From Phenylobacterium sp. (GTDB lineage: Bacteria; Pseudomonadota; Alphaproteobacteria; Caulobacterales; Caulobacteraceae), in NCBI RefSeq assembly GCF_030697305.1, contig NZ_JAUYQL010000038.1, positions 23,531-87,530 on the forward strand: 64,000 bases of DNA, written 5' to 3'. Each line of letters opens with the position of its first letter. Within the stretch, counting starts at the first letter, position 1. Below, piece by piece: positions 47,095 to 55,688 of the stretch. Under the pieces are notes generated by a model, which saw only the letters and a program-made list of their open reading frames with translations, had not been told where the DNA came from and made no database searches. A program made the translations under genes and the position numbers.

Positions 47095-47679
47095 ATGGCC
47101 GCCGCGAAAGGCAAGTTGGGGGGCAAGTCTGGCCGCAAATCCGTGGTCGCCGCGCTGGAGCGCTCGCCCAGCCACCTGCTGCACCGCGCGTTGCAGCTCG
47201 CGCTCGACATCTACGCCGAAGAAGTCGGCGACTCCGCGCTGACCCAGCGCCAGTACGCCGTGCTGGCCGCGGCCGCGGCCCACGAAGGCGCGACCCAGAC
47301 TGACCTCGTCAGGATCACCGGTATCGACCGCTCCACCCTGGCCGACATGGCCGCGCGGATGATCGGCCGCGGGTTGCTCGAGCGCGAACGATCGCAATTG
47401 GACGCCCGGGCCAACGCCGTGACCATCACCGACCACGGCCGTGCGGCCCTGGAGGATGTGCAGCCGAAGGTCGCGGCCGCCGATGCGCGGCTGCTGAAGC
47501 TGATCGCCCGCAACAGCCGGCGCGAGACGTTCCTGGAACTGCTGGGCGAGCTGGTCGCCGCTGAGCCGTCGGCGCCGGCCAGCGAACCCGCCAACGACGA
47601 GGCCAAGACGCCCAAGGCGGCGAAGCCGCCAAAGTCGCCCAAGGCCGACGGCAAGAAGAAGAAAAAGAAGGCCGCCTAG
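47095..47679 (+). CDS. MarR-family regulator with Lys-rich tails
   Basis: 'LT.RQY.VL', 'TQTDL...TGIDRST', 'DARA..V.IT..G'. Confidence 0.85.
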   Translation: MAAAKGKLGGKSGRKSVVAALERSPSHLLHRALQLALDIYAEEVGDSALTQRQYAVLAAAAAHEGATQTDLVRITGIDRSTLADMAARMIGRGLLERERSQLDARANAVTITDHGRAALEDVQPKVAAADARLLKLIARNSRRETFLELLGELVAAEPSAPASEPANDEAKTPKAAKPPKSPKADGKKKKKKAA

Positions 47680-47794
47680 TCCGCGCGGCTGCGATTGCCG
47701 CCCTTCGGCCGGCGTCGTCAAATGGCCGCCGCATCAACTGAGCATGGTCTGCGCTCGAGACAGGTCGGTCATCCTCGACCCGGAGGCTTTTGCG

Positions 47795-48448
47795 ATGATC
47801 CCCACCATCACCGCCTTTGAACGCTCGCCGGATCGCGGTCGGGGTCTGGCGCGCGACATGCGCGTGCGCTGGGCGCTCGAGGAGGTGGGTCAGCCCTATG
47901 ACGTGCGTCTGGTGTCGTTCGAGGCGATGAAGCAGCCCGCCCATCTCGCCCTGCACCCCTTCGGCCAGATCCCGACATTCGAGGAGGGCGACCTTGCCCT
48001 TTTCGAAACGGGAGCGATCGTCTTCCACATCGCCGAGCAGAACGCGGGACTGCTGCCCAGCGATGCGAACGCCCGAGCGCGCGCCGTGACCTGGATGTTC
48101 GCCGCGCTCAATACGGTGGAGCCGCCGGTGCTTGAGCGCGAAATGGCCAGGCTCGTGGAGCGCGACAAGCCGTGGTTCGAGGCGCGCCTGCCGATCCTCG
48201 AGGACCGCATACGCAGCCGGCTGGGCGCGCTGTCCGATCGCCTGGGTGACGCCGACTGGCTCGACGGCGACTTCAGCGCCGGCGACCTGATGATGGCGAT
48301 GGTCCTGCTCAGGCTGAAGGGCTCGGATCTGCTCGGTAGGTATCCGAACCTCGCCGCCTACCTCGCCCGCGGCGAGGCGCGGCCGGCCTACCAGCGCGCC
48401 TTCGCCGCCCAGCTGGCGGTCTTCACCAGCCAGCAACCCGACGGCTGA
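47795..48448 (+). CDS. Glutathione S-transferase family protein
   Basis: 'GRGLARD.RVRWALEE', 'PFGQIP', 'FETGAI'; GGAGG RBS before ATG 47795. Confidence 0.88.
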   Translation: MIPTITAFERSPDRGRGLARDMRVRWALEEVGQPYDVRLVSFEAMKQPAHLALHPFGQIPTFEEGDLALFETGAIVFHIAEQNAGLLPSDANARARAVTWMFAALNTVEPPVLEREMARLVERDKPWFEARLPILEDRIRSRLGALSDRLGDADWLDGDFSAGDLMMAMVLLRLKGSDLLGRYPNLAAYLARGEARPAYQRAFAAQLAVFTSQQPDG

Positions 48449-48456
48449 TGACTGCG

Positions 48457-49539
48457 TCAGTAACCCCCGCCGCGCGCCGTCGGCTCAGCGCCGACACGGG
48501 GTGAAGCGTCGATGGCCTGGGCGATGATCCGCAGCGCGTCGTCCACATCGCGCTCGGTGATGTCCAGATAGAAGACCGCGCGTATCGCATCCGCCCCGGA
48601 GGGCAGCATCCACAACCCGCGTTGATGCGCCTGATCGACCACGCTGCCCGCGGCGACATCGGTCAGCCGATAGCGGACGATGTTCGACTGCACGCTCGCC
48701 GGGTCGATCTCGATTCCGTCGATCTGCGCGAGGCCCTGGGCGAACCGAGCGGCGAGTGCGTGGGTCTCGCCCAGCCGCGGGCGATGGTGCTCCAGGGCAT
48801 GCAGAGCGCCCGCCGCGACCAGACCCGCCTGGCGAAAGCCGCCGCCGAACATCTGCTTGAAGCGACGCGCCCGGCTGACGAAATCCGCAGGTCCCACCAG
48901 GCAGGAGCCCATGGGCGCGCCAAGCGCCTTCGACATGCAGACGCTCACCGTGTCGAACGATCGCGCATAGTCCGCCTCGGACACGCCGGTCGCGGCCGTC
49001 GCATGCCATAGGCGCGCGCCGTCGAGGTGGGTCGCCAGCCCGTGTCGCCGACCCGCCGCCGTCGCCGCCTCCAAGGCTTCGAGCGGCCAGATCGAGCCGC
49101 CGCCGTTGTTGTGGGTGTTCTCCAGGCACAGCAGGCGCGCCGGAGCGGTCACGGTCGTCGGGAAGAAGCGGTGCGGAACCCCGATCACGGCGTCGACGTC
49201 GGCGGGCGTGAAGATCCCTCTGACGCCGGGAAGCGGCCTGGGCAGCACGCCGGAGAACGCCGCCACGCCGCCGTTCTCCAGGACGTAGACGTGGGCGGCC
49301 TGGTCGAACAGCACGGCGTCGCCCGGCTGGGTATGGGTGCGCACGGCGACCTGGTTGGTCATCGTGCCGCTGGGCATGTAGACGGCGTCTTCCTTGCCCA
49401 GGATGTCGGCCACCGCCGCCTCCAGCGCCTTGACCGTCGGATCGTCGCCATAGACGTCGTCACCGACCTCGGCGTAGGCCATCACCCGTCGCATTTCGGG
49501 CGTAGGACGGCTGCAGGTGTCGCTACGCAGGTCGATCAT
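48457..49539 (-). CDS. ltaE: Low-specificity L-threonine aldolase
   Basis: 'DLRSDT...P', 'GDDVYGDDPTV..LE', 'SGTM.N', 'HLDGARLW', 'CMSKALGAP.GS'. Confidence 0.9.
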   Translation of the reverse strand: MIDLRSDTCSRPTPEMRRVMAYAEVGDDVYGDDPTVKALEAAVADILGKEDAVYMPSGTMTNQVAVRTHTQPGDAVLFDQAAHVYVLENGGVAAFSGVLPRPLPGVRGIFTPADVDAVIGVPHRFFPTTVTAPARLLCLENTHNNGGGSIWPLEALEAATAAGRRHGLATHLDGARLWHATAATGVSEADYARSFDTVSVCMSKALGAPMGSCLVGPADFVSRARRFKQMFGGGFRQAGLVAAGALHALEHHRPRLGETHALAARFAQGLAQIDGIEIDPASVQSNIVRYRLTDVAAGSVVDQAHQRGLWMLPSGADAIRAVFYLDITERDVDDALRIIAQAIDASPRVGAEPTARGGGY

Positions 49540-49599
49540 CGCACGCCCCCCGTTCGGGCCCAAGCGGGCCTCGGCGAGGCGCAATCTAGCGCGCCGACG

Positions 49600-50763
49600 T
49601 CACGAAGACAGGGCTATCAACTCAGGCTGCGGTCCGACATAGCGCGCCCGGGGTCGGATCAGCACGCCGGCGGCGCCCTGTTCCAGGGCGTGGGCGATCC
49701 AGCCGGCGACGCGGGCAGTGGCGAACAGGGCGAACGGGGCGTCGGCGGGGGCGGAGATCGCCTGGGTCATCGCCGCGAGGGCGAAGTCGATGTTGGGCGC
49801 TGCGCCCGTCGCCTCGTGCACGGCCGCGCTGAGGGACTGGGCCGCCGCGGCCGGCGTGAACCGTCCGAGCAGTGCGAGGGCGCGAGGATCGCCGTCCGGA
49901 TACAGCGGATGGCCGAAGCCTGGGATCGGCCGGCCCTCGGCGAGGCGCGCGGCGACCGCCACCTGCGCGCCGTCCCGCGCCGCATCGGCCAGCAGGGCGG
50001 CGACGCCGGCCGCAGCCCCACCATGCAGAGGTCCGGTAAGGGTCGCCAGGCCCGCCAGCGCGCAGGCGGCCAGAGACGCGCCGGTGGACGCCGCCACCCG
50101 CGCGGCGAACGTCGAGGCGTTGAACTCGTGGTCCGCCAGCAACACCAGAGCGCGACGGATCAGATCGGCGCCGTTGGCGTCTACGCCCCAAGCGACCGCC
50201 AGCCGCAGATGGATCGCGCCGCCGCCGGAAACGCCGGCGACGGCTTCGGACACGGCGTCCAGCAGATCTTCCGCCTCGAGGCCCAAGGCCGCGGCCTGTC
50301 GACCCAGCGCCGGTCGGTCACTCGCCGCCCGGCTTGCAAGCAGGCTGAACGCGCGCGCCTTCAGTGCTCCCGCCGGCATCGCCTGAAGAGGCCTGGGCTG
50401 ACATGGGTGCGATTGGGCGCTCCACAGCAGACGCGCGACGGCCTCCAGGGTCTCGGTTTCGGCCAACACCGCCGCATCACGTCCGCGGTAGAACAGCCGT
50501 CCGCCCACGATCGTGGTGATCGCCGAGTCCATCACGGGCTCGCCCCAGGCGATGGCCCCGGCCGCGACCTCCGACCGCTTGCGCCCGCGCGTGCGGCGTT
50601 CGATCAGCGCCGCGAGATCCACCGCGCGATAGAGGCTGCGCCGCGGATCGTCGGGATCGGCGCGCACCTGCACGCGACCGCGGCTGACATAGGCGTAGAG
50701 CGTCTGCGGCCGGACGCCGAGGCGTTCGATGGCGGCCTGCGCGGTGATCCACTCGTCTGACAT
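49600..50763 (-). CDS. HTH_17/excisionase-type DNA-binding domain fused to citrate-synthase domain
   Basis: N-terminal 'WITAQAAIERLGVRPQTLYAYVSRG' wHTH; CS motifs 'DHEFNASTF', 'GPLHGGA', 'GFGHPLY..GDPR', 'NIDF'. Confidence 0.88.
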   Translation of the reverse strand: MSDEWITAQAAIERLGVRPQTLYAYVSRGRVQVRADPDDPRRSLYRAVDLAALIERRTRGRKRSEVAAGAIAWGEPVMDSAITTIVGGRLFYRGRDAAVLAETETLEAVARLLWSAQSHPCQPRPLQAMPAGALKARAFSLLASRAASDRPALGRQAAALGLEAEDLLDAVSEAVAGVSGGGAIHLRLAVAWGVDANGADLIRRALVLLADHEFNASTFAARVAASTGASLAACALAGLATLTGPLHGGAAAGVAALLADAARDGAQVAVAARLAEGRPIPGFGHPLYPDGDPRALALLGRFTPAAAAQSLSAAVHEATGAAPNIDFALAAMTQAISAPADAPFALFATARVAGWIAHALEQGAAGVLIRPRARYVGPQPELIALSS

Positions 50764-50786
50764 TGATTATATTGATCAAGATTGAC
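50762..50786. promoter_or_regulatory. Phased direct repeats (candidate operator) in the CS divergon
   Basis: ATTGAT 50762-67, ATTGAT 50771-76, ATTGAC 50781-86; also TTGAT-N7-ATCAA dyad. Confidence 0.6.
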
Positions 50787-50838
50787 TAGGTGATCGTGCG
50801 ACAGATGATGACCGGGCGCAAGCAAGAAGGAGCCCGCA

Positions 50839-51918
50839 ATGTCCGAAGGCCTCGACGACGTCATCGCCGCCCGCACCATCCTGTCGGACGTGGATGGCGC
50901 GGCCGGGCGGCTGGTGATCCGCGGACACTCGCTCGACGACCTGGCCGGCCGCGCCCGGTTCGAGCACGTCGCCCATCTGCTATTCGAGGGCTTCTTCGAT
51001 GATCTTCCGCGCGACCTGCAGCGACCGCTGGGAGAGGCGCGGGCCGCGGTGTTCGCCCAGGCTGCCGCCGTCGGCGAGCTCAGGGGACTGGATCCCGTGG
51101 AGGCGATGCGGGCACTGAGCGCACGGCTGCCCGACGGAGACGATCTCGCCACTGCGCTGAGGCTGCTGGCCGCACCTGGGGTGTTCACCGCCGCCGTGCT
51201 GCGCGCCCGCGCCGGCGCCGCCCCGATCGCGCCTGACCCTTCCCTGAGCCACGCCGCCGACATCTTGAGGATGACCCACGGCCGGCCCGCTGGTCCCGGC
51301 CAGGCCGAGGCGCTGGACGCCTATCTGGTGACCGTCTGCGACCACGGACTGAACGCCTCGACCTTCGCCGCCAGGGTGATCGCCTCGACGCACGCGGGCC
51401 TGACCTCGGCGGTGCTGGGCGGGATCAGCGCGCTCAAAGGTCCGCTGCATGGCGGCGCGCCGGGCCCGGTGCTGGAGATGCTGCGCGAGATCGGAGAGCC
51501 GGCGAACGCCCGCCCGTGGCTTGAGGCGGCGCTGGCGCGCGGCGAGCGCCTGATGGGTTTCGGACACCGGATCTACCGGCTGCGCGACCCCAGGGCCGAT
51601 GCGCTGAAGGCGGCCGTGCGCAGGCTGGGCGCGCTGCAACCGGACGCGTCAGGCCGTATCGCCCTGGCCGAAGCGGTGGAGGCCGCGGCGCTGGCGATCC
51701 TCAAAGAACGCAAGCCCGACCGGCCGCTGGAGACCAACGTCGAGTTCTACACCGCCCTACTGCTGGAGGCGGTCGGCTTCCCGGCGGACGCCTTCACCGG
51801 CGTATTCGCCATGGGGCGGGTGGCGGGCTGGATCGCCCACGCCCGCGAACAGGTGGCGCAGGGCCGGCTGATCCGTCCGCAGTCGGTCTATGTCGGTCCG
51901 CAGCCGAAGGCCGCCTGA
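50839..51918 (+). CDS. Citrate/2-methylcitrate synthase-like paralogue
   Basis: 'GLDDVIAA.T.LS.VDG..G.L..RG', 'DHGLNASTF', 'GPLHGGA', 'GFGHRIY...DPR', 'NVEFY'; AAGGAG RBS. Confidence 0.9.
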   Translation: MSEGLDDVIAARTILSDVDGAAGRLVIRGHSLDDLAGRARFEHVAHLLFEGFFDDLPRDLQRPLGEARAAVFAQAAAVGELRGLDPVEAMRALSARLPDGDDLATALRLLAAPGVFTAAVLRARAGAAPIAPDPSLSHAADILRMTHGRPAGPGQAEALDAYLVTVCDHGLNASTFAARVIASTHAGLTSAVLGGISALKGPLHGGAPGPVLEMLREIGEPANARPWLEAALARGERLMGFGHRIYRLRDPRADALKAAVRRLGALQPDASGRIALAEAVEAAALAILKERKPDRPLETNVEFYTALLLEAVGFPADAFTGVFAMGRVAGWIAHAREQVAQGRLIRPQSVYVGPQPKAA

Positions 51919-51921
51919 AAC

Positions 51922-52902
51922 TCAGGCTTCCGGCACCTCGACGACGCCTGCGCCGCCGGCCTCGTCGCCCCAGGCGAGGCGGCGGTGGTCGGCGGTGATA
52001 GCCAACGCAGAGATCGCCGCGCCCTTCTCAGCCTTGACCGTGTCGATGCGCCGCCCGGTGAGGTCGCAGACCCACACCCGTCCGTCGTCCAGCCCGGCGG
52101 CCGCCCAGGTGGCCCCAGGCGTCGCAGCGGCGCGGGTCACCAGGGCGGATTCGTCAAAGCCGATCTCGGCCGCCTCCTTGCCCATCGGCCCGGTGGAGCC
52201 GCCGAACGGCCAGATCACCAGGCCGTTGGCCCCGGAGGTGACCATCAATTGTCCCTTGGAGCAGAACGCCAGGCTGCGGACCTTGGCCGGGTAGCCGCCC
52301 ATTCGCATGTTCTTCTCGTCGGAGACCCGCCAGCCGTGGAGCTGGTTCTCCTGCATGGACGAGATCAGGAACTTGCCGTCCGGGCTCCAGGCCGCGCCGA
52401 TATGGCTGCCGGCCCAGTTCAGCACCGCCGGCTTCTGTTCGGCGATCCGCGCGTACCACAGGCGCAGGCAGTTGTAGGTCGCCGCCGCCACCCGCCGGCC
52501 CTTGGGGTCGAAGGCGACGTCGGCGATGGACCGCTCGTGCGGGAAAAGTCTGGTGAAGCCTGCGTCGGCGACGTCGCGCATGTGCAGGTCGCGGCCCGCG
52601 GCGAAGGCGATCAGGCCCGACTGGGCGCTCGCCGCGACCACATCGATCCAGCGGCCCTTCACCTCGGCGATCTGTTCGGCGCCGCTCGGCCGCGACCAGA
52701 CCACACGGCCGTCGTCGCCGCCGGTGAGCATCCCGTCGCCCGACGGATGCAGGCAGGCTGACAGTATGGCGCCGTCGTGCGCCTGGACGCTCTCGCCGCC
52801 CTCGAAACGGACGGTCCCGTCGCCCAGGGCGAAACAGGCGCGCTGGGCGCGGTCGAAGGCGGCGGCGGTGACGAAGGCTTCGAATTCAGAGATCATCGCC
52901 AT
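51922..52902 (-). CDS. WD40-repeat beta-propeller protein
   Basis: Repeated 'L.GGDDG.V..', 'AFDP.G', 'WSPDG..L', 'G.DDG.VW'; start may be ATG 52896. Confidence 0.82.
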   Translation of the reverse strand: MAMISEFEAFVTAAAFDRAQRACFALGDGTVRFEGGESVQAHDGAILSACLHPSGDGMLTGGDDGRVVWSRPSGAEQIAEVKGRWIDVVAASAQSGLIAFAAGRDLHMRDVADAGFTRLFPHERSIADVAFDPKGRRVAAATYNCLRLWYARIAEQKPAVLNWAGSHIGAAWSPDGKFLISSMQENQLHGWRVSDEKNMRMGGYPAKVRSLAFCSKGQLMVTSGANGLVIWPFGGSTGPMGKEAAEIGFDESALVTRAAATPGATWAAAGLDDGRVWVCDLTGRRIDTVKAEKGAAISALAITADHRRLAWGDEAGGAGVVEVPEA

Positions 52903-53590: not shown

Positions 53591-54637
53591 CTAGGCCGCG
53601 CAGGCCTCGAAGCCTTCGCGCAGGGCGGCCTCGTCGAGGTTGCGGCCGATGAACACCAGTCGGCTCTGGCGCACGCTGCCCTCGCGCCACTCGCCCTGGA
53701 AATCACCCTCCAGGATCATGTGCACGGCCTGGAACACCAGCCTGCGGTCTTCGCCGGCGACGTCGAGGATGCCCTTGGCGCGCAGGATGTCCGGTCCCTG
53801 GGCCTGCAGCACCTCGTTCAGCCAGGTGGTGACCTTGTTGGCGTTGATCGGCTTGTCCAGGGTCAGCGAGATTCCGCGGATGCCGGCGGCGGCGGCGTGG
53901 TCCTGATGATCGTGCCCATGATTATGCTCGTGATGATCGTGGTGGTCGTGCTCGCAGTCCTCGTCGTGCACATGGCCCGCCTCGCCGTGCGCCGGGTTGA
54001 GGAATTCCGGCTCCAGCTCGGTGATCCGCGCGAGGTCGAAGCCGCCGCGGCCGAGGATCGCGTCCAGGGGCACGTTCGAGCGCTGCGCCCGGTGGATCGG
54101 CGCCAGCGGATTAAGCCGGCGGATCGAGGCCTCGACGGCGGCCAGTTCGGCCGGGGTCACCAAATCGGTCTTGTTGAGGATGATCTGGTCGGCGAAGGCG
54201 ATCTGCTCCACCGCCTCGCGGGAGTCCGCCAGTCTGAGCGGCAGGTGCTTGGCGTCGACCACCGTGGTCACGCTGTCGAGTTGGGTGCGGGCGCGCACGT
54301 CCTCGTCGACGAAGAAGGTCTGGGCCACCGGGCCGGGGTCGGCGAGGCCCGTGGTCTCGACAATGATCGCATCGAAGCCGCCCTTGCGCTTCATCAGGCC
54401 TGAGAGCACCCGGATCAGGTCGCCGCGCACCGTGCAGCAGACGCAGCCGTTGTTCATCTCGAACACCTCTTCGTCGGCGCCGACGATCAGGTCGTTGTCG
54501 ATGCCGACCTCGCCGAACTCGTTGACGATCACGGCGTATCGCTTCCCGTGGTCCTCCGAGAGAATGCGGTTGAGGAGCGTGGTCTTGCCGGCCCCAAGGT
54601 AGCCTGTGAGCACGGTGACGGGGGTTTTGTCGGTCAT
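53591..54637 (-). CDS. COG0523/CobW-family metallochaperone GTPase
   Basis: '[10 protein letters not shown]', 'NEFGE', 'GCVCC', 'ETTGLADP', His-rich insert, CobW_C 'RAKG'. Confidence 0.92.
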
Positions 54638-54704
54638 GGGGGTCATCTAGTCATCGCAAGAGCGAGTGGAAACCTCGCGGGTCCAGATTGACCCGCGCGG
54701 CGTG

Positions 54705-54746: not shown

Positions 54747-55688
54747 TTGATCCCCATCGATCCCACGTCCGGCGCGGCGGACACAAGCCCGCAGGTCGCG
54801 CCAGCGCGCATGGACGCCTTCCGCGCTGATCGCGTCTATCTGGGCGCAGACCACGCGCGCAACGAGCGGCGCACCTGGATCGTCACCGCGATCTGTGCGG
54901 CGACCCTGGCCGCACAACTCATCGGCGGGCTGGCGTTCAAGTCGATGGCGCTGACCGCCGCCGGCCTGCACATGGCCGCCCATGTCGCCGTGCTGCTGGT
55001 TGCCGCATTCGCATACCGGGTCGCACGCCAGCGCAAGGACGACCCGCGCTATGCTTTCGGCACCGGCAAGATCGGCTTCCTCGCCGGCTTCGCCAACGCC
55101 GTGGTCCTCGCCGCCACGGCTTTTCTGATCGCCTTGGAGAGCATCGAGCGGCTGATCGAGCCTGCGGCGGTCGACTATGACTCCGCCCTGCCTCTGGCCG
55201 CCGCCGGCCTGGCGGTGACGATCGTCTGCGTCTGGCTTCTGAAGCCCGCGCGCGCCGCCCATGACGGCGACGCCGACCTCAATCTGTCAGCGGCCCACCT
55301 ACACCTTTCGGCCGACGCCCTGGTGGGCGTGCTGACGCTGGCGGGACTGGCCGCCGGCCGGAGCTTCGGCTGGAGCTGGACCGACCCGGCCGCAGGCCTC
55401 GTGGGAGCAGCCCTGGTGGCGCAGTTCGCCTGGAGCCTGCTGCGCCGCACCGGCGGCGTACTGCTGGACATGAACCCAAGTCCGGCGCTGGTCGCCGAGA
55501 TCCGCGCACGGCTGCAGGCGCAGGGCGAGCGGGTGGTCGACCTGCATCTGTGGCGGCTGGGCCCCGGCCACCATGCCGCGATTGTCGTGCTGGAGGCCGC
55601 CCAGCCACAGGACGTGCAGGCCTATCGCGCGCGGCTGGCGGGCCTTGCGGGCCTCAGTCACCTGACGATCGAAGTGCGCCGCGCCTGA
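54747..55688 (+). CDS. CDF-family metal transporter (DmeF-like); start uncertain (TTG 54747 or ATG 54810)
   Basis: 'H.RNERRT..V', 'SMAL...G.HM..H', 'FGTGK...LAGF', 'HL.AD', 'DLHLW.LGPG'. Confidence 0.87.
   Translation: MIPIDPTSGAADTSPQVAPARMDAFRADRVYLGADHARNERRTWIVTAICAATLAAQLIGGLAFKSMALTAAGLHMAAHVAVLLVAAFAYRVARQRKDDPRYAFGTGKIGFLAGFANAVVLAATAFLIALESIERLIEPAAVDYDSALPLAAAGLAVTIVCVWLLKPARAAHDGDADLNLSAAHLHLSADALVGVLTLAGLAAGRSFGWSWTDPAAGLVGAALVAQFAWSLLRRTGGVLLDMNPSPALVAEIRARLQAQGERVVDLHLWRLGPGHHAAIVVLEAAQPQDVQAYRARLAGLAGLSHLTIEVRRA

Follow-up and report, generated by a model that had tools for sequence, protein, structure and literature searches.

A divergent pair of citrate-synthase-like genes

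In a 64,000-nucleotide (nt) stretch of DNA from a Phenylobacterium species (contig NZ_JAUYQL010000038.1, positions 23,531 to 87,530; the whole stretch is referred to below as the window, and positions are counted from its first letter), we analysed two genes that face away from each other. One encodes an N-terminal winged helix-turn-helix (HTH) domain fused to a citrate synthase (CS) domain, and is called here the fusion gene. The other, its partner, encodes a CS that lacks the HTH. An initial annotation, made from the sequence alone, had described these genes as a divergent pair across 75 bp, and the open reading frames (ORFs) and the gap (50764-50838) are as it claimed. The features of the locus are the following.

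49600-50763, minus strand: HTH-citrate-synthase fusion gene (387 aa), orthologue of Caulobacter CitC (CCNA_03758), assigned by ORF, Pfam and primer match
50839-51918, plus strand: partner citrate synthase gene (359 aa), orthologue of Caulobacter CitB (CCNA_03757), assigned by Pfam, PRK12350, PDB and primer match
50587-50763, minus strand: fusion residues 1-59, winged HTH of the excisionase/MerR-like (HTH_17) type, with the recognition-helix motif TLYAYVSRG
50530-50586, minus strand: fusion residues 60-78, basic linker joining the HTH to the CS-like domain, of low confidence by predicted local distance difference test (pLDDT)
49603-50529, minus strand: fusion residues 79-387, citrate-synthase-fold domain and putative sensor, assigned by Foldseek and residue statistics
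50762-50786, plus strand: 25-bp operator-like conserved motif ATTGATTATATTGATCAAGATTGAC, found by position weight matrix (PWM), 8-mer count and metagenome scan
50782-50809, plus strand: candidate sigma-70-like promoter of the partner gene, TTGACT-16-GATGAT, found by promoter scan
50827-50832, plus strand: Shine-Dalgarno sequence AAGGAG, 6 nt upstream of the partner ATG, read directly from the sequence

The GC content at third codon positions is 0.84 for the fusion gene and 0.87 for the partner gene, and the distribution of GC over codon positions backs both frames. Two further ORFs, one of 577 aa opposite the fusion gene (49027-50760, plus strand) and one of 219 aa overlapping the genes of the pair (50604-51263, minus strand), were rejected as shadow ORFs of GC-rich DNA, given their atypical codon-position GC (for example, 0.85/0.57/0.76). 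The closest database relative of the fusion, with 91% identity, comes from a metagenome-assembled genome of Phenylobacterium.

The initial annotation knew of no functional characterisation of this pair; in fact, judged by sequence, the two genes are orthologues of citC (fusion) and citB (partner) of Caulobacter crescentus, which are adjacent there and have been tested in Escherichia coli: of the two, only CitB complements a gltA mutant (Bergé et al. 2020, eLife, PMC7083601). A citBC deletion strain of Caulobacter cannot accept a citA mutation (PMC7083601). The gene identities follow from the peptides encoded by the published cloning primers. The citB forward primer encodes MSDGLEGV, where the window partner begins MSEGLDDV; the citC forward primer encodes MTDWMD, and fusions begin M-x-D/E-W-I/L-D/T; and the citC reverse primer encodes a peptide ending in SPSSSS-stop, which is the C-terminus of a Caulobacter-type fusion (P0121). 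With three mismatches, the citC forward primer also lands on the start codon of the fusion gene in three Caulobacter/Caulobacteraceae loci (L011, L013 and L025). The Caulobacter loci show the same divergent arrangement and the motif described below, and the window sequence is about 60% identical to the Caulobacter pair. Bergé et al. treated CitB and CitC as candidate citrate synthases only, without considering DNA binding or regulation, and the eLife text on these proteins makes no mention of a helix or HTH (PMC7083601). We likewise found no description of an HTH-citrate-synthase protein, or of a 'citrate synthase-like' regulator, in our literature searches.

The fusion is widespread. A HMMER search covering 1.84 billion representative sequences gave 1170 clusters at an E-value of 1e-30 or better, and nearly all of the best 150 clusters align from query residue 1-15 and therefore carry the HTH. 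The family comprises at least 142 clusters at 50% identity from multiple phyla; the residue counts below rest on 142 full-length representatives. Gene-context counts rest on 80 inspected loci from a scan of one genome per GTDB species (a count of 596 loci confirmed by tblastn was set aside, as it may include ordinary CS genes matched by the DHELNAST pattern). The 80 loci span Alpha-, Beta- and Gammaproteobacteria, Acidobacteriota, Rubrobacteraceae, Vulcanimicrobiota and Binatia. At 52 loci the upstream neighbour of the fusion gene is a divergent gene for a PRK12350-type CS, across gaps of 72-236 bp, so the arrangement seen in the window recurs across phyla (Alpha- and Betaproteobacteria, Acidobacteriota, Rubrobacteraceae and Vulcanimicrobiota). 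The divergent gene at the other 28 loci is a family III CoA-transferase in at least 11 cases, a major facilitator superfamily (MFS) transporter in two, a cupin in one and a threonine-dehydratase-like enzyme in one.

All peptides that the initial annotation had quoted from the fusion (its HTH string, DHEFNAS, GPLHG, GFGH and NIDF) are present in the translation, in which residues 5-29 read WITAQAAIERLGVRPQTLYAYVSRG. The Pfam model HTH_17 (PF12728) matches residues 5-57 with E=4e-4 and 21 bits, where the Pfam gathering score is 27. The window protein thus scores under this threshold; the model matches 15 of 20 diverse members of the family at E-values up to 0.01 (best E=8.6e-12), MerR models match 10 of the 20, and many database relatives carry a precomputed PF12728 match. 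The HTH call is therefore weak on the window protein alone and firm across the family. In an AlphaFold2 model, built with a 65-sequence alignment (mean pLDDT 87.9), residues 1-59 form a beta-alpha-alpha-beta-beta-alpha arrangement (strands 5-7, 33-36 and 39-46; helices 8-15, 19-27 and 47-59) with pLDDT of 84-95. The linker, residues 60-78, is disordered in the model, with pLDDT below 50 at residues 64-76, and is poorly conserved in the family. When the model was compared by Foldseek with the viral models of BFVD, matches were confined to the N-terminal domain, which superposes on phage MerR-like, excisionase, AlpA and PrtN proteins with target-normalised template-modelling (TM) scores of 0.7-0.86 and root-mean-square deviations of 1.5-2.7 Å. 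The N-terminal segment thus models as the winged HTH that had been proposed. All 142 representatives have Y23, S27 and R28, and the TLYAYVSRG motif is conserved; to judge from these sequences, the HTH is under strict purifying selection across the family.

The second domain is likewise as predicted. The Pfam Citrate_synt model (PF00285) matches the fusion with E=1.7e-56 and 192 bits (gathering score 27), most strongly over residues 194-372, and the closest PDB structure found by Foldseek is CitA of Mycobacterium tuberculosis (E=1.8e-14, TM 0.67-0.72). Among curated NCBIfam models, the fusion falls under all 21 citrate-synthase and citryl-CoA-lyase cut-offs, with TIGR01800 as the best (153 bits, cut-off 421). 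The claim that neither protein of the pair resembles the hexameric GltA held up, since TIGR01798, with a cut-off of 485, gives 76 bits for the fusion and 160 bits for the partner.

The quoted CS motifs lie at residues 211-217 (DHEFNAS), 244-248 (GPLHG), 282-285 (GFGH) and 324-327 (NIDF), and the window fusion retains H212, N215, H247, H285, R294, D326, R351 and R370. Citrate synthases use a His-His-Asp catalytic triad, and the equivalents of R294, R351 and R370 line their oxaloacetate/citrate pocket; we presume that our mapping of these arginines and of the triad onto the pig-enzyme numbering is correct. Each of the three arginines is present in all 142 representatives, and the triad residues are present in 140 (H247), 131 (H285) and 133 (D326); all 52 fusions that have a CS gene as partner possess the complete triad. 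Next to the active-site motifs, fusions and partners differ. At the fourth position after GFGH, 124 of 142 fusions have Pro and 51 of 52 partners have Arg or Lys, and at the first, 85 of 142 fusions have Pro and 52 of 52 partners have Arg; the window fusion has Pro at both. The 12 positions before the catalytic acid contain on average 0.9 basic residues in fusions, compared to 3.1 in partners, and none in the window fusion. We take the basic residues at these positions to be CoA-phosphate contacts (Arg324, Lys366 and Lys368 of the pig-heart enzyme). Their loss, together with the failure of CitC to complement and the sub-threshold NCBIfam scores, suggests a pocket that still binds a dicarboxylate or tricarboxylate but is impaired for acetyl-CoA. 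An acyl-CoA, which the initial annotation had listed as a possible ligand beside citrate and oxaloacetate, is thus less likely than these two acids, as the basic residues by the active-site motifs are systematically lost.

The CS-like gene facing the fusion proved to encode a full-length CS of the M. tuberculosis CitA type. It matches Citrate_synt with E=9e-96 and 321 bits (gathering score 27) and passes PRK12350 (455 bits, cut-off 332), and it shares 44% identity with the fusion over 195 aa in the C-terminal half. Its closest solved relatives are the CitA structures of M. tuberculosis/M. bovis (PDB 8gmf/6wgy, E about 1e-66), with which it has the peptide ETNVEF in common. The initial reading of the CS motifs was right for NIDF of the fusion but missed NVEF of the partner, in which Glu replaces the catalytic Asp, as it does in 52 of 52 partner orthologues and in M. 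tuberculosis CitA. The partner keeps the remaining triad His residues and the three substrate-binding arginines, and the canonical residues are conserved in all 52 orthologues. M. tuberculosis CitA (Rv0889c; PDB 6WGY, 8GM9) is thus like the partner in subfamily (PRK12350) and in its Glu-for-Asp exchange, and it is also the structure nearest to the CS domain of the fusion. Its chains (363-380 residues) align to the partner from residue 10, which leaves no room for an N-terminal HTH, and its gene presumably has no HTH-CS neighbour.

Some members of the family and their neighbours have unusual features. The CoA-transferases that take the place of the CS partner (loci L036, L052, L057-L061, L064, L067 and L070) all carry about 190-270 additional, unassigned residues N-terminal to the CoA_transf_3 domain, and their matches to that model cover just its first ~200 positions. 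At one of these loci, in Rubricella (L052), an aconitase-family gene lies two genes beyond the CoA-transferase. In one 792-aa protein (P0179), the whole HTH-CS unit is tandemly duplicated within one chain; both HTHs are kept, and the His-His catalytic positions are lost in both copies (GRRLE, GFGS). By its sequence, this protein looks like a member that has turned into a pure pseudo-enzyme regulator.

A conserved motif upstream of the fusion gene

The proposal that the fusion is a transcription factor predicts an operator in the intergenic DNA, and a conserved motif with dyad symmetry was located there, also where the neighbour is not a CS. Alignment of the 52 intergenic regions gave the 25-bp consensus aTTGATt-N5-ATCAAgATTGAc, that is, a-TTGAT-t-N5-ATCAA-g-A-TTGA-c. 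In the window, the half-sites are TTGAT (50763-50767), ATCAA (50775-50779) and TTGAC (50782-50786), and two bases of the fusion start codon are part of the motif; in most Alphaproteobacteria, 12-40 nt separate it from that start. None of the 53 sequences departs from the bases T-C-A-A and T-T-G-A, and the motif is conserved even where the fusion proteins are only about 41-48% identical to that of the window. The 64-kb window contains a single site of at least 15 bits by PWM, which scores 48.9 bits at 50762-50786. An unbiased count found the 8-mer AAGATTGA in 39 of the 52 intergenic regions, where in shuffled sequences any 8-mer occurred at most four times.

The distribution of the motif points to the fusion rather than to the CS partner. 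All 52 partner loci have it (50 with at least 18 bits by PWM, the other two in gapped versions), as do 22 of the 28 loci that lack a CS partner, for a total of 74 of 80 genomes. The motif thus travels with the fusion gene, and not with the CS gene; in the PWM scan it lies directly upstream of the fusion gene in a single orientation, whichever gene is the neighbour. The reverse test, in which metagenome contigs were scanned for exact copies of TTGAT-N7-ATCAAGATTGAC, gave 113 matches with room on the expected side, and 83 of these (73%) have the N-terminus of a fusion within 260 nt in the predicted orientation. The motif on its own thus recovers the fusion. A CS partner is on the other side of the motif in 55 of 110 metagenomic matches. 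Of the remaining copies, about half look like chance matches, being situated in low-GC DNA or within ORFs.

The initial annotation noted that Xis/BldC-type domains bind DNA as head-to-tail oligomers. In the Caulobacterales, including the window, three direct repeats of ATTGAY (ATTGAT/ATTGAT/ATTGAC) at 9-10 bp can also be read. Across phyla, however, the middle direct repeat decays while the inverted ATCAA is invariant, so that the conserved DNA reads better as the inverted half-sites TTGAT-N7-ATCAA followed by TTGAC than as a head-to-tail array.

The motif also keeps a nearly constant position relative to the partner gene, 51-69 nt from the ATG in most loci. Its third half-site, TTGAC(T/G), is the -35 hexamer of the candidate partner promoter, TTGACT-16-GATGAT, which is the only promoter-like match in 49300-52300 (0.0 expected). 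The dyad TTGAT-N7-ATCAA would be centred near -46 of this candidate promoter, so a protein bound there could activate or occlude it. The fusion gene lacks a Shine-Dalgarno sequence comparable to the AAGGAG of the partner, because its ATG abuts the motif, and its own promoter was not placed by the promoter scan of 49300-52300. No start-site or leaderless annotation of CCNA_03757/8 was found in the supplements of PMC4117421 and PMC4287350, whose gene tables are possibly incomplete. Among sequencing runs sought for RNA-seq reads of the locus, only groundwater and other metagenome DNA runs matched.

Some copies of the motif lie apart from the start of a fusion gene. In metagenome contigs, high-GC exact copies that have no fusion gene nearby precede genes of the DinB family (L084:639-662 and L101), DUF2332 genes (L137 and L191) and an HMGL-like/homocitrate-synthase-like gene (L109:4196-4219); such copies could be further regulon members or chance matches. 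In Pseudomonas sp. NA-150, a copy of 39.8 bits (L055:6966-6990) is located ~800 nt downstream of the fusion gene instead of upstream. It faces a row of genes for an amidase, an RraA-like aldolase (oxaloacetate-decarboxylase family) and an MFS transporter, which may be a relocated target operon.

Proposed regulatory role and alternative explanations

The fusion combines a DNA-binding and a ligand-binding-type domain in one chain, with a predicted operator beside its gene, which is what defines a one-component regulator. We consider it likely that the fusion is a dimeric regulator of this kind that senses an oxaloacetate- or citrate-like acid, regulates its own gene and controls the divergent gene. 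As a group, the fusions are most likely gene switches that sense a metabolite by means of a former Krebs-cycle enzyme, and they make up a family not described before. The idea of a one-component regulator with an enzyme fold, put forward in the initial annotation, is thus supported by computational evidence, every prediction examined having come out in its favour. The narrower proposal that the fusion controls its partner enzyme needs to be widened: the common denominator of the loci is the fusion's own promoter plus any divergent gene, be it a CS, a family III CoA-transferase or an MFS transporter.

From sequence and predicted structure we infer DNA binding, binding as a dimer, the identity of the ligand, autorepression and the sign of partner control, and would picture the mechanism as follows. 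An excisionase/MerR-like winged HTH is tethered through a flexible linker of ~20 residues to a CS-fold domain that would have been recruited as ligand sensor. The fusion is expected to dimerise like all citrate synthases, which would place two HTHs on TTGAT-N7-ATCAA, while the third half-site, TTGAC, would double as the -35 box of the divergent gene. Since the motif touches the fusion start codon, binding should repress transcription of the fusion gene itself. It should also switch the divergent promoter, by activation or repression; here this promoter would drive a CitB-type citrate synthase, and elsewhere a family III CoA-transferase or an MFS transporter. The oxaloacetate/citrate pocket probably accommodates a di- or tricarboxylic acid as effector, and we favour oxaloacetate or citrate. 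In real citrate synthases, ligand binding drives an open-to-closed domain movement, and in the fusion such a movement would alter the spacing or orientation of the two HTHs.

Several observations weigh against this proposal. With regard to the HTH, the window protein stays under the HTH_17 gathering score (21 and 27 bits, respectively), the BFVD superpositions have weak E-values (0.065 or above), the domain being short, and a profile of the N-terminal domain found nothing significant among PDB sequences (the best matches were SoxR and PcaV, at E-values of 0.4-0.5). As to the motif, 6 of the 80 loci lack it, ~15 high-GC metagenomic copies have no fusion gene nearby, and its most invariant part contains a perfect -35-like TTGAC, so its conservation could be partly that of a promoter. 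Furthermore, a pocket that served for binding alone would not require the full triad with its Asp general base, which leaves room for catalysis, and the CoA-phosphate role of the lost basic residues is presumed from pig-heart CS structures.

The room left for catalysis leads to the alternative that survives best, although we regard it as rather unlikely: the fusion could be a trigger enzyme, that is, a still-working member of the CS family (for example a citryl-CoA lyase or hydrolase, or an enzyme that condenses another acyl donor or oxo-acid) with turnover coupled to DNA binding. An intact His-His-Asp triad in every CS-paired fusion and in more than 92% of the 142 representatives would be expected of such an enzyme, as the Asp of CS is mainly catalytic, and the divergent genes all encode acyl-CoA or organic-acid enzymes. 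This explanation has to contend with the lack of rescue of E. coli gltA by CitC (PMC7083601), with scores under all curated CS and citryl-CoA-lyase cut-offs, and with the replacement of the basic residues that flank the active-site motifs, presumably CoA-phosphate contacts. A specific form of it, which we hold to be similarly doubtful, is that the fusion still converts a substrate of the CS type (such as citryl-CoA, or oxaloacetate together with an unusual acyl donor) or pairs with CitB in mixed dimers, and that flux through the active site, and not ligand occupancy as such, would set DNA binding.

It is improbable that the motif consists of promoter elements or is the site of another protein (IHF-like or FNR/CRP-like), and that the fusion does not bind it. 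TTGAC does equal the sigma-70 -35 consensus and lies at promoter distance from the partner ATG, but invariance of eight positions in 53 of 53 sequences exceeds that of any -35 box, and the conservation reaches 20 bp further upstream. Back-to-back -35 boxes were rejected as a complete explanation, since no -10 box would fit between the motif and the nearby fusion ATG. ATCAA is also part of the IHF consensus WATCAANNNNTTR, and TTGAT/ATCAA are FNR half-sites. These resemblances are only partial, as the spacing is N7 and not the N4 of an FNR box, and the bases that follow ATCAA-N4 do not fit the TTR of IHF; both readings were discarded. Moreover, motif and fusion gene stay together in phyla that differ in their global regulators, and 73% of the exact metagenomic copies adjoin a fusion.

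Least probable of all, and disfavoured here although the initial annotation had offered it, is that the two CS paralogues form a heterodimer for a non-TCA condensation; the HTH would then be incidental. In its favour, the two proteins are 44% identical in the C-terminal half, where much of the CS dimer contact is made, and 52 of 80 genomes have the two genes in tight linkage. Against it, the 28 fusions that have no CS partner nearby still keep the HTH, the pocket and the motif, CitB alone complements E. coli gltA (PMC7083601), the partner subfamily was crystallised in M. tuberculosis without such a subunit, and the invariance of HTH and motif would be left unexplained.

The preferred reading, a one-component regulator with a CS-fold sensor, has parallels among known systems. 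MocR/GabR proteins are dimeric, self-repressing regulators that use a full-size enzyme fold as effector domain and control a divergent gene for a homologous real enzyme. The fusion is similar in its putative enzyme-fold sensor and divergent homologous enzyme. It is not a member of that family, whose GntR winged HTH and pyridoxal-phosphate-dependent aminotransferase domains are unrelated to HTH_17 and citrate synthase. Like the fusion, the trigger enzymes PutA and BirA carry metabolic-enzyme and DNA-binding domains in one chain. Gene control by these proteins is tied to the enzyme's ligand (proline for PutA), and both are proven active enzymes, whereas activity of the fusion is doubtful and the folds differ. 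In orthologous Caulobacter, the contrast within the pair is that CitB is an active CS and CitC was inactive in the E. coli assay.

The HTH itself shares its beta-alpha-alpha-beta-beta topology and HTH_17/MerR model matches with the winged HTH proteins Xis, TorI, AlpA, BldC and MerR. However, MerR proteins have a long coiled-coil dimerisation helix, while the fusion has a single helix (47-59) followed by the disordered linker, and MerR operators lie inside a -35/-10 spacer of 19-20 bp, while the fusion motif lies upstream of and over the -35-like TTGAC. The fusion is not a member of the MerR family. It also seems to differ from Xis/BldC, which form head-to-tail arrays on direct repeats, in that its conserved half-sites read as inverted ones and not as a clear array of that kind.

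Beyond the earlier complementation work on CitB and CitC (PMC7083601), what is new here is the recognition of the HTH, the multi-phylum family and the conserved motif. If the proposed role is correct, the CS fold would join the short list of whole enzymes that serve as transcription-factor sensors (GabR/MocR, PutA and BirA), there would be a reason for Caulobacter to keep an apparently 'inactive' third citrate synthase, CitC, and the annotation 'citrate synthase (family protein)' would be corrected for hundreds of genes of soil, water and plant-associated bacteria. As the predicted operator is short, varies very little and also occurs in Caulobacter, a genetically tractable model, the proposal is readily testable. 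Should the ligand be oxaloacetate or citrate, the fusion would be a ready biosensor scaffold for a node of central metabolism with few known sensors. If instead flux sets DNA binding, the fusion would provide a direct transcriptional read-out of the oxaloacetate/acetyl-CoA node, and might connect to the non-enzymatic cell-cycle role of the Caulobacter paralogue CitA.

Other genes in the window

The pair is flanked by genes for a threonine-aldolase-like protein (48457-49584), a WD40 protein (51922-52902) and a GST-like protein (47744-48448). These were ruled out as members of the system, as they are kept beside the pair in the nearest Phenylobacterium relative only. The threonine-aldolase-like (Beta_elim_lyase) gene is on the minus strand, like the fusion gene, and starts 15 nt past the fusion stop, so it may be co-transcribed with it.

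Farther away, the translation of 53591-54646 (minus strand) resembles a COG0523/CobW-type metal-chaperone GTPase with a GCVCC motif and a His-rich stretch. Divergent to it, 54747-55688 (plus strand) encodes, again judging by the translation, a cation-efflux membrane protein-like product, and the two genes are probably a zinc-homeostasis module. Finally, a small ORF at 47095-47679 (plus strand) has, by eye, a MarR-like-looking winged-helix region followed by the lysine-rich tail KADGKKKKKKAA.

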